The notes below the pieces were generated by a model. The model ran no database searches. It worked only from the letters and a program-made list of their open reading frames with translations, and was not told where the DNA came from. A DNA stretch of 48,718 nucleotides from a virus (Duplodnaviria > Heunggongvirae > Uroviricota > Caudoviricetes), in the IMG/VR virus record IMGVR_UViG_2597489870_000007; one strand, 5' to 3'. Positions within the stretch are counted from its first letter, which is position 1. Each line of letters begins with the position of its first letter. Shown here piece after piece: positions 818-3,800 of this stretch. Position numbers and translations under genes: made by a program.

Positions 818-3800
818 TATGCAAGCCTCACAATATAGTTAAATGCGATGTTTTTGACGGTGTTTTCCGCGTTACCAGCAGCGTTAACGGTGATGGTGTG
901 TCCATGTGAGCCAATCGCAACGGAGTGCGTATGAGCACCAATACCGACAGTATGTGTATGCGCCCCAGCACTTGCTGCAGTACCTGATACTGAGTGGGTA
1001 TGCGCGCCAGCAGAATTCGTTGCACCTAAGTGAGTTTGAGCAGAGTTCGACGAAGCTACTCTACCGGAGCTAACGTTAGCATTATCCCCCTGAGATATCG
1101 GATGCGTATGTGCACCTGCTGAAGCTGCTGTTCCGCTAACGCTATGGGTATGCGCACCAGTGTTATTCGTAGATTTAGTTCCATAATCAAACGATGATGT
1201 GTTTTTTGTCCCTAAATCTGTATTTGAAGCACTGGCGCTGTGGGTGTGCGATTTAATGCCGTCCTGTTCCTGAGACAATACGGCACGACCACTGGCGGGC
1301 TTGCCCTTAATCGTCCAGCCACGCATATCAGGGATCACGCCTGACGGATAAGCGGCTGCAAGTTTCGGGTAAGCAGATTTGTCAAAAGTCTGCCCCTGCA
1401 TCAGGGCATAACCAGACGGAACGGTATCTGATGGCCACGGGATTGGTGCGCCGACTGGGTAGCTTTCTGGTGGAAGATTTTTCGAGGTATAAACTTCTGC
1501 CCAGTCTTCCTCAAAACCATAACCGTCTCTTGAAGAACGGTAGAACAGACCACCATTTCTGTAATGCGCCTTCATCTGCAGGGTCCGGCAACTTCCGACT
1601 CCGGTATAGAAGTTAACCAGAATATAGCTGTCGCCAGAGCGGGTGACATTGTAAGCGCCTGATTCGGCATTCCAGGGAACGCCACCATCCGCATCGGCAT
1701 ATGTATCCGTTGCCCTTCTGGCAAAAGCAGCCACATGCGCGGCGGTTAAAGTAATATCTTTTGAACCATCAAACTCAACCCCAGAAACCAGTCTTGGCGT
1801 TTGCAGCTTTGTTGCTGTCAATGCGTTACCGTTCAGACTTGCAGACAGCTTGGTTCCAATAACCAGTTCGCCGGTTGCGTTATCAATAGCAAACGGTCTT
1901 AATGTATTCCATCCACCATAAACATCACCTTGATTGGTAAGCAGCAGGTAAGTTTTAGCGCCATCATTACGCCATAATGCCCCATACTATACTCCCCACC
2001 TATCATTCGAATCTGATTACCACCACGCGCTACAATTTCGTCTGTGGCAAAAAGTTTTTTGCACGACAAGTTATCGTTAACGATTAACGAATGAGACTCA
2101 TAAAAACCACGCCCACTCTTAAAATCAAGGATAACGTCCGCCGCGATACATTCAGTCGCTGGATTTGTTGCCCCAAACTTATAGGTCGTATCATTAACAA
2201 CGAGATCAGCACCAGGTGCGGATATTGACAGGCCATCTTCGATAAACGCAAAAACAGGGAAAGCAGCGCCATCAACATAGAACACAGAGCGCAAATCATC
2301 GCCCTTATTACTCATCATTATTGAGTGGATGGCTCGTTCATTGTTTTGATATTGCCAGAACATTCCATAAGCATAACGCCCCCTGTCAGTCCAGCCACCA
2401 GGCATAACAAATCCGTTAAACTCGCAGTTATTCATCGGATCGCCTGCGGTTCGCGTTGCCGTGGTGATAATGACCCTTGATGCCAGTTCGCTTACTGAGC
2501 CAGCAGAACGCATAACAACAACAGGGTAATATTTTCCAGATGTTGCACCTGCAGGAGCGTTAACCCGCACATAACGCATACCACGCTTATCAGCAAAGTC
2601 TGTTTTACTGACCGCGTTAATGTTGTTCAGGAAGCGTCCCTTATCGGGTATATCAGCGCCGTTCTGGTCTTTCTGCAGACATTTCTCTGCATTGTCATAG
2701 GCTGCTTTTACTGCCTTTGGCGTTGCCGCCAGCGTTTCAGACGTGCTGTTGGTCGCACTGCTGAGCTGTACTATCCCCTTTTTCGTCGTGCTCGCATCCT
2801 CAAGCGCCACGGCGGATGCAATATCCTCTGCCCGTTTTGCCGCTGTCTCGGCGCGCGTTGCCGCGGATTCCGCCGTACTTTTGCTCTGAGCTGCCGCCGT
2901 CGCACTGCCAGCTGCCTCTGTCGCCTTCGTGGATGCCGTCGTGGCGCTGCCCTTTGCTGCTGACGCCTGTCTGGTCGCCTCATCTTTTGAAGCAGACGCA
3001 GATGATGCCGATGACGCCGCCGAACTGGCGGACGATGCGGCAGCCGTTTTTGAGGATTCTGCGCTGGTTTCCGACGCTTTCGCGTTCGTCTCGGATGTCT
3101 TCGCTGCGGAAGCAGACCTCGCTGCTGCGCTGGCCTGTACAGCGGCTTCGCCAGCATTCGTTGTGGCTGTTGAAGCGGACGATGCAGCACTTTCTGCCGA
3201 TTTTCCGGCGGCGGTGGCACTGGCTGAGGCCTGCCCGGCACTTGTTGACGCGGCACTGGCAGACGACGCAGCCGCTGTTTTTGAGCCTGCCGCAGCTGAG
3301 GCGCTCTGTCCCGCTGCCGTTTCAGAAGACCTGGCGTTCGTCTCGGACGTTTTTGCCGCCTTCGCAGAATTTGCTGCCGCCGTTGCCGAGGAAGCTGCGC
3401 TGCTGGCGCTCGAGGCTGCGTTCGTTTCTGATGATTTTGCCGCCTCTTTTGAAGCCGACGCATCCCGTGCTGAAGTGGCTGCTTCTGACGCTTTCGTGGT
3501 CGCAGTGGATGCAGAAGTGGCTGCTGATTGTTGTGACACTGCCGCATTCGTTTCTGACGTTTTCGCCGCACCGGCACTGGTAGCCGCCGCGCTTTTTGAG
3601 GACTCTGCAGCGGCAGCACTTTTTGATGCCTCAGAGGCTTTTGCTGATGCCGTTCCTGCGCTGGAAGACGCTGACTGAGCCGACGACGCGGCCTGTCCGG
3701 CTGACGTGCTGGCTGCACGTGCTGAGCCTGCAGCATCAGTCGCATGGGTTGCCGCCTCACGGGCAGATGTGCTGGCATCACTGGCTGACTTCTTCGCGGC

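Follow-up and report, generated by a model that had tools for sequence, protein, structure and literature searches.

Introduction

The side tail fibers of lambda bind OmpC through their distal tip and speed adsorption, and they are dispensable for plaque formation (PMC12617516). Compared with Ur-lambda, lambda PaPa has a frameshift that divides the side fiber gene stf into the two reading frames orf-401 and orf-314 (Hendrix and Duda, 1992, as cited in PMC12617516), and this frameshift blocks both the synthesis and the assembly of the side fibers (PMC12617516). Frameshifts, through insertions and deletions spread along the gene, are a common route to the loss of stf under selection and account for 15 of 19 lambda mutants arising where selection in plaques favored low adsorption (PMC2762979). 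StfR of the cryptic Rac prophage of E. coli K-12 (b1372, 1120 aa) and the proteins of other lambdoid stfR genes share one domain layout, and their genes lie in the same order, J-lom-stf-tfa. [quoted passage not shown]

Here we describe the stf gene in a 48,718-nt stretch of DNA, which we refer to as the window. The whole window corresponds to positions 5072386-5121103 of NC_017633.1, the record of E. coli ETEC H10407, in reverse orientation, and it holds a lambda-like prophage adjoining prfC. The prophage spans from the integrase gene and the defense gene dsr1 at one end to J-lom-stf-tfa, by prfC. Its gene order in the tail fiber region is thus that of lambda, with the domain layout of the Rac protein. 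The corresponding genes of K-12, TW14425, and KS-NP019 are intact; in H10407 a +5 frameshift at codon 730 divides stf in two.

The original prediction, made from the sequence of the window, had drawn a parallel to the frameshift in laboratory lambda. The parallel is apt, as the genes are homologous and both are split in two: the N-terminal part of the H10407 protein is 76% identical to orf-401, and residues 903-1117 of the protein with its frame repaired are 68% identical to orf-314. The two cases differ in several respects. The H10407 lesion is a 5-bp duplication rather than a single-base change, and it breaks the protein at residue 730 of 1117, whereas the break in lambda lies between ORFs of 401 and 314 aa. 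The H10407 fiber would be about 340 aa longer than that of Ur-lambda if the latter is taken at the length given above. Finally, the H10407 lesion sits in a defective chromosomal prophage and that of lambda PaPa in a propagated laboratory phage.

Results

Reading frames of stf and the tandem duplication

The features of the stf region are as follows.

245..817, minus strand: tfa, intact tail fiber assembly gene (Caudo_TAP, PF02413, E = 1.9e-37; Pfam and annotation)
817..4175, minus strand: whole stfR-type side tail fiber pseudogene, RefSeq ETEC_RS29280, 'frameshifted', 1117 aa when repaired (annotation, repaired ORF, and Pfam)
817..1986, minus strand: C-terminal stf frame, 388 authentic residues now disconnected (ORF reading, Pfam, and comparison with orf-314)
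1899..4175, minus strand: N-terminal stf frame, predicted 758-aa product, GenBank CBJ04231.1 (ORF reading)
1984..1993, no strand assigned: 5-bp tandem duplication ATACT-ATACT (AGTAT-AGTAT on the gene strand), the frameshifting lesion
4240..4839, minus strand: lom, Ail/Lom outer-membrane protein, directly upstream of stf (annotation)

At positions 1984-1993 the plus strand of the window reads ATACTATACT, which is AGTATAGTAT when read on the stf strand. The repeat comprises exactly 2.0 copies of ATACT and cannot be extended by even one base on either side. Exact 5+5 tandem duplications are found 65 times in the window, compared with 47.8 ± 8.1 times in shuffled sequences, so the ATACT repeat is in itself unremarkable and its status as a lesion rests on comparison with other genomes.

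The N-terminal frame can start at a GTG (4181) or at an ATG (4175), the latter being the start annotated in homologues, and it runs to the stop codon at 1901-1899. From 1986 the C-terminal frame is open as far as its own stop codon at 819-817, which overlaps the ATG of tfa (817-815) at base 817. Between 1986 and 1899 both frames are open, an overlap of 88 nt. The end of the N-terminal frame and the opening of the C-terminal frame agree with those given in the original prediction, and so does the length of the fiber that it expected upon deletion of one copy, about 1,119 aa: with one ATACT removed, a single uninterrupted ORF results, of 1119 aa from the GTG or 1117 aa from the annotated ATG. 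The extra AGTAT falls within codons 728-730 of stf, and the frame is lost after residue 729, at codon 730. The 758-aa product consists of 729 authentic residues followed by a 29-residue tail read out of frame.

Within the Ala/Ser-rich repeat region of stf we also observed overlapping ORFs of 249-336 aa in alternative frames or antisense, at 2771-3781 (minus strand) and 2816-3678 (plus strand). They look like by-products of a GC-rich repetitive coding sequence and not like genes.

Homologues and distribution of the two-copy allele

Over bases 800-4200 the window shows 100% identity with E. coli H10407 (NC_017633.1) and also with SEC470, whose record has the same length. The closest intact genes are stfR of TW14425 (99.3% identity at the nucleotide level) and stfR of KS-NP019 (96.7%), each with one ATACT. 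Both matches are 3396 nt long against a query of 3401 nt, that is, exactly 5 nt shorter with no other difference in length, and in the alignment the flanks of the single ATACT are identical to the window. The duplication proposed from the sequence is hence borne out both by the bases themselves and by its single-copy homologues, in which nothing else nearby has changed.

At the protein level the repaired fiber is 99.6% identical to StfR of TW14425, 98.0% to that of KS-NP019, and 95.3% to the 1120-aa Rac protein of K-12, in accordance with its initial assignment to the StfR type. A 15-residue peptide spanning the junction in the repaired protein is identical in all three.

We then followed the junction through larger collections. 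A 100-nt probe located the site in 1,376 of 5,426 complete E. coli genomes, and only in H10407 and SEC470 did it align without a 5-nt gap; about 1,375 other complete genomes carry a single ATACT. With a 39-nt junction probe, of which each 28-nt seed word spans the duplication, only two of 20,395 records matched, again H10407 and SEC470, which have identical lengths. Since the length and the coordinates of the SEC470 record equal those of H10407, it is probably not an independent assembly. The duplicated junction gave no match in IMG/VR or in the JGI metagenomes, while the single-copy junction was present in 66 IMG/VR contigs, in all of which (66/66) the frame is open through the site. An intact homologue with the 10 nt in one continuous frame, which would have refuted the prediction, was not found among the genomes and IMG/VR contigs probed.

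The length of the ORF around the conserved site varies widely among the single-copy IMG/VR contigs (L010-L075), with 271+410 and 163+410 codons as examples, which suggests that the same C-terminal module is joined to shorter N-terminal parts in other fibers. A few of these copies (L014) appear to be broken elsewhere.

This distribution also bears on the idea that the two frames are a functional arrangement, in which a programmed ribosomal frameshift or a phase-variable repeat restores or regulates the full-length fiber. The 88-nt overlap would in principle leave room for a -1 shift. However, a slippery heptamer of the form X XXY YYZ is absent from the overlap in all phases, and the two-frame layout is not conserved, the homologues all having a single frame, and on these grounds we rejected a programmed -1 frameshift. 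Nor does a 5-mer present twice amount to a contingency tract, and at least three copies were seen in no strain. Because about 1,375 genomes and 66 viral contigs all have a single copy and the second copy occurs only in H10407 and SEC470, we rejected a phase-variable repeat as well. We therefore regard a functional layout of either kind as the least probable of the readings considered, with next to no chance of being correct.

Presence of the duplication in independent assemblies

Among complete genomes the two-copy allele occurs only in the H10407 reference and in the record of the same length, which is the pattern expected if the duplication were a sequencing or assembly artefact of that reference and the true gene were intact. 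Two contigs in ENA metagenomes argue against this. ERZ27297395 k119_7386 and ERZ28575362 ETEC16-1 scaffold_13965, which were assembled independently, encode the identical 758-aa product, and both match a stretch of 61 nt around the duplication exactly, the 10 nt included. Elsewhere they depart from the reference at 3 and 9 positions, respectively, which shows that they were not copied from it and are independent data. Moreover, an insertion of 5 nt outside a homopolymer is an atypical error for a finished assembly of the Sanger era. As the two contigs repeat both the 10 nt and the truncated ORF, an assembly error is very unlikely.

The two contigs may derive from H10407 itself, for example from stool collected in a challenge study, in which case they would confirm the sequence and not indicate spread of the allele. 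At position 1523 of the window they (L006 and L007) share one base difference, the gene strand having G in the window and A in the contigs, which may point to a stock variant of H10407 or to a close relative.

From these comparisons we consider it very probable that stf of H10407 carries a real, recent, and strain-private frameshift, caused by one extra AGTAT in the StfR-type gene of the lambda-like prophage by prfC. The lesion is already on record: RefSeq labels ETEC_RS29280 'frameshifted', and GenBank lists the 758-aa product under CBJ04231.1 with the name 'putative side fiber protein homologue'. Our analysis adds which change underlies this flagged pseudogene of the ETEC reference challenge strain: a +5 tandem duplication at codon 730. 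The lesion is real and private to H10407. Its importance is small, and it adds a further case to the frameshift losses to which lambdoid stf genes are known to be prone.

Domain organization and consequence for the fiber

To the repaired protein Pfam assigned a phage_tail_N domain (PF08400) at residues 1-134 (E = 1e-71; 239.7 bits, cut-off 26.6), a Gp34_trimer-like domain at 663-762, a Collar domain at 907-954, and a Phage_fiber repeat at 1002-1015, the latter in the His-rich C-terminal region (GAHTH). The gene has the features of the StfR-type family in its PF08400 N-terminus, its position after J-lom and before tfa, and its gp37-like distal part. It lacks the single continuous reading frame of the family, owing to the +5 shift at codon 730, and is a pseudogene member.

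The frameshift at residue 730 falls inside the Gp34_trimer-like domain. The 388 C-terminal residues that are lost comprise the end of this domain, the collar, the His-rich GAHTH-type fiber repeats, and the distal tip. The extra AGTAT copy would shift the ribosome out of frame after residue 729, and translation would end 29 codons later. The predicted 758-aa product would retain the N-terminal tail-attachment domain and the Ala/Ser-rich shaft and be devoid of collar, repeats, and tip. In both lambda Stf and gp37 of T4 the distal tip is the receptor-binding part, and from what is generally known of phage fibers the tip region is presumably the part that folds with the help of the downstream Tfa chaperone. 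The expected outcome is that functional side fibers would not be made, as in laboratory lambda, and we infer that the stf gene of H10407 is unable to yield them.

Origin of the duplication

In its intact form the site is GGGG-AGTAT-GGGG on the gene strand, with GGGG flanking the unit on both sides. Were either nascent strand to slip back by 5 nt, its 3' end would not pair with the template, and classical slippage would thus lack a microhomology to use at this junction; for the same reason the fill-in of a 5-nt staggered break is an attractive possibility. Candidate routes to the duplication would be a microduplication during replication or repair, or such a fill-in. The original prediction had proposed either replication slippage or the footprint of an excised transposon. 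The length of 5 bp does fit a target duplication, but the microhomology that slippage would use is missing and we found no positive evidence of an insertion.

A transposon scar would have formed if an element that duplicates 5 bp of its target (IS2, the Tn3 family, Mu, or Tn7) had inserted at ATACT and had later been excised exactly, leaving both copies behind. The repeat is exactly 5+5 nt, a known length of target-site duplication, and the lack of junction microhomology agrees better with the fill-in of a staggered cut than with classical slippage. An IS2-like element of 1331 bp, flanked by the 5-bp duplication GATCG, resides in the same prophage. IS2 does also target stfR, since a copy lies in the stfR gene of the laboratory strain tolC- (NZ_CP018801.1; L076, 2715-4045), 170 bp from the position equivalent to the ATACT site and with the duplication GCCGG.

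Against such a scar, the site holds no remnant of an element end and no bases beyond the repeat. To look for a copy of IS2 that still occupies this position, we used two chimeric junction probes, both for IS2, and found it in none of 5,426 complete genomes in either orientation; the sole near match was tolC-, where the element lies 170 bp off and has its own duplication, and this candidate was discarded. IS2 and the IS3 family move by a copy-out-paste-in mechanism in which the donor copy stays in place, and to our knowledge E. coli does not possess classical end joining. Excision outcomes described in a review of IS excision are precise excision, flanking deletions, and joins at microhomologies of 2-4 bp, and do not include the retention of both target copies. 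A literature search for IS excision of the IEE type that leaves both target copies led to this review, in which no such outcome is described, and among the papers searched none ties H10407 to IEE.

We therefore consider a transposon scar unlikely. That the repeat is the retained target duplication of a 'hit-and-run' insertion, by IS2 or by another element that duplicates 5 bp, appears a shade less likely still. If it were true, an IS would have been removed naturally in E. coli with both target copies kept and a frameshifting scar left behind, and scars of this kind would contribute to pseudogene formation in IS-rich pathogens more than is recognised. The wider interest of the locus is only mechanistic, and lies in the missing microhomology together with a duplication as long as the target duplication of the resident IS2-like element. 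The route by which the duplication arose has no bearing on what it does to the gene.

Prophage context

Further features of the prophage that bear on its condition, and the genes at its integrase end, are as follows.

15060-17758: ISCro1, IS66 family, about 2.7 kb, splitting the tail terminator gene gpU; 8-bp duplications GGATATCG at 15052-15059 and 17759-17766
32817-34147: IS2-like element of 1331 bp with terminal inverted repeats, splitting a KilA-N gene; GATCG duplications at 32812-32816 and 34148-34152
43485-47312, minus strand: dsr1, 1275 aa, anti-phage defense-associated sirtuin, cargo at the integrase end (RefSeq annotation only)
47495-48718: integrase, beside dsr1

Several further genes of the prophage are partial. 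Judging from what is known of gpU in lambda, the split in this gene would probably leave the prophage unable to assemble tails, whatever the state of stf. Since the same prophage carries ISCro1 in gpU and the IS2-like element in the KilA-N gene, the loss of stf is probably neutral decay of a defective prophage. The frameshift is most simply viewed as one more step in this decay. In this respect H10407 differs from the lambda mutants selected for low adsorption (PMC2762979). In both, stf was lost through a frameshifting insertion or deletion, but in H10407 selection is not demonstrable and neutral decay is the simpler explanation. We thus regard stf of H10407 as an ordinary pseudogene, private to this strain and annotated before, in a prophage undergoing decay.

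The cargo downstream of tfa differs among related prophages. In H10407 this slot holds a hexapeptide serine acetyltransferase gene (1-234 of the window, plus strand), which is cut by the window edge. In TW14425 (L002, 422-2321) it is occupied by a SLATT-domain gene and a reverse transcriptase, a defense-like pair, and in the Rac prophage of K-12 (L008, 7085-7675) by pinR.
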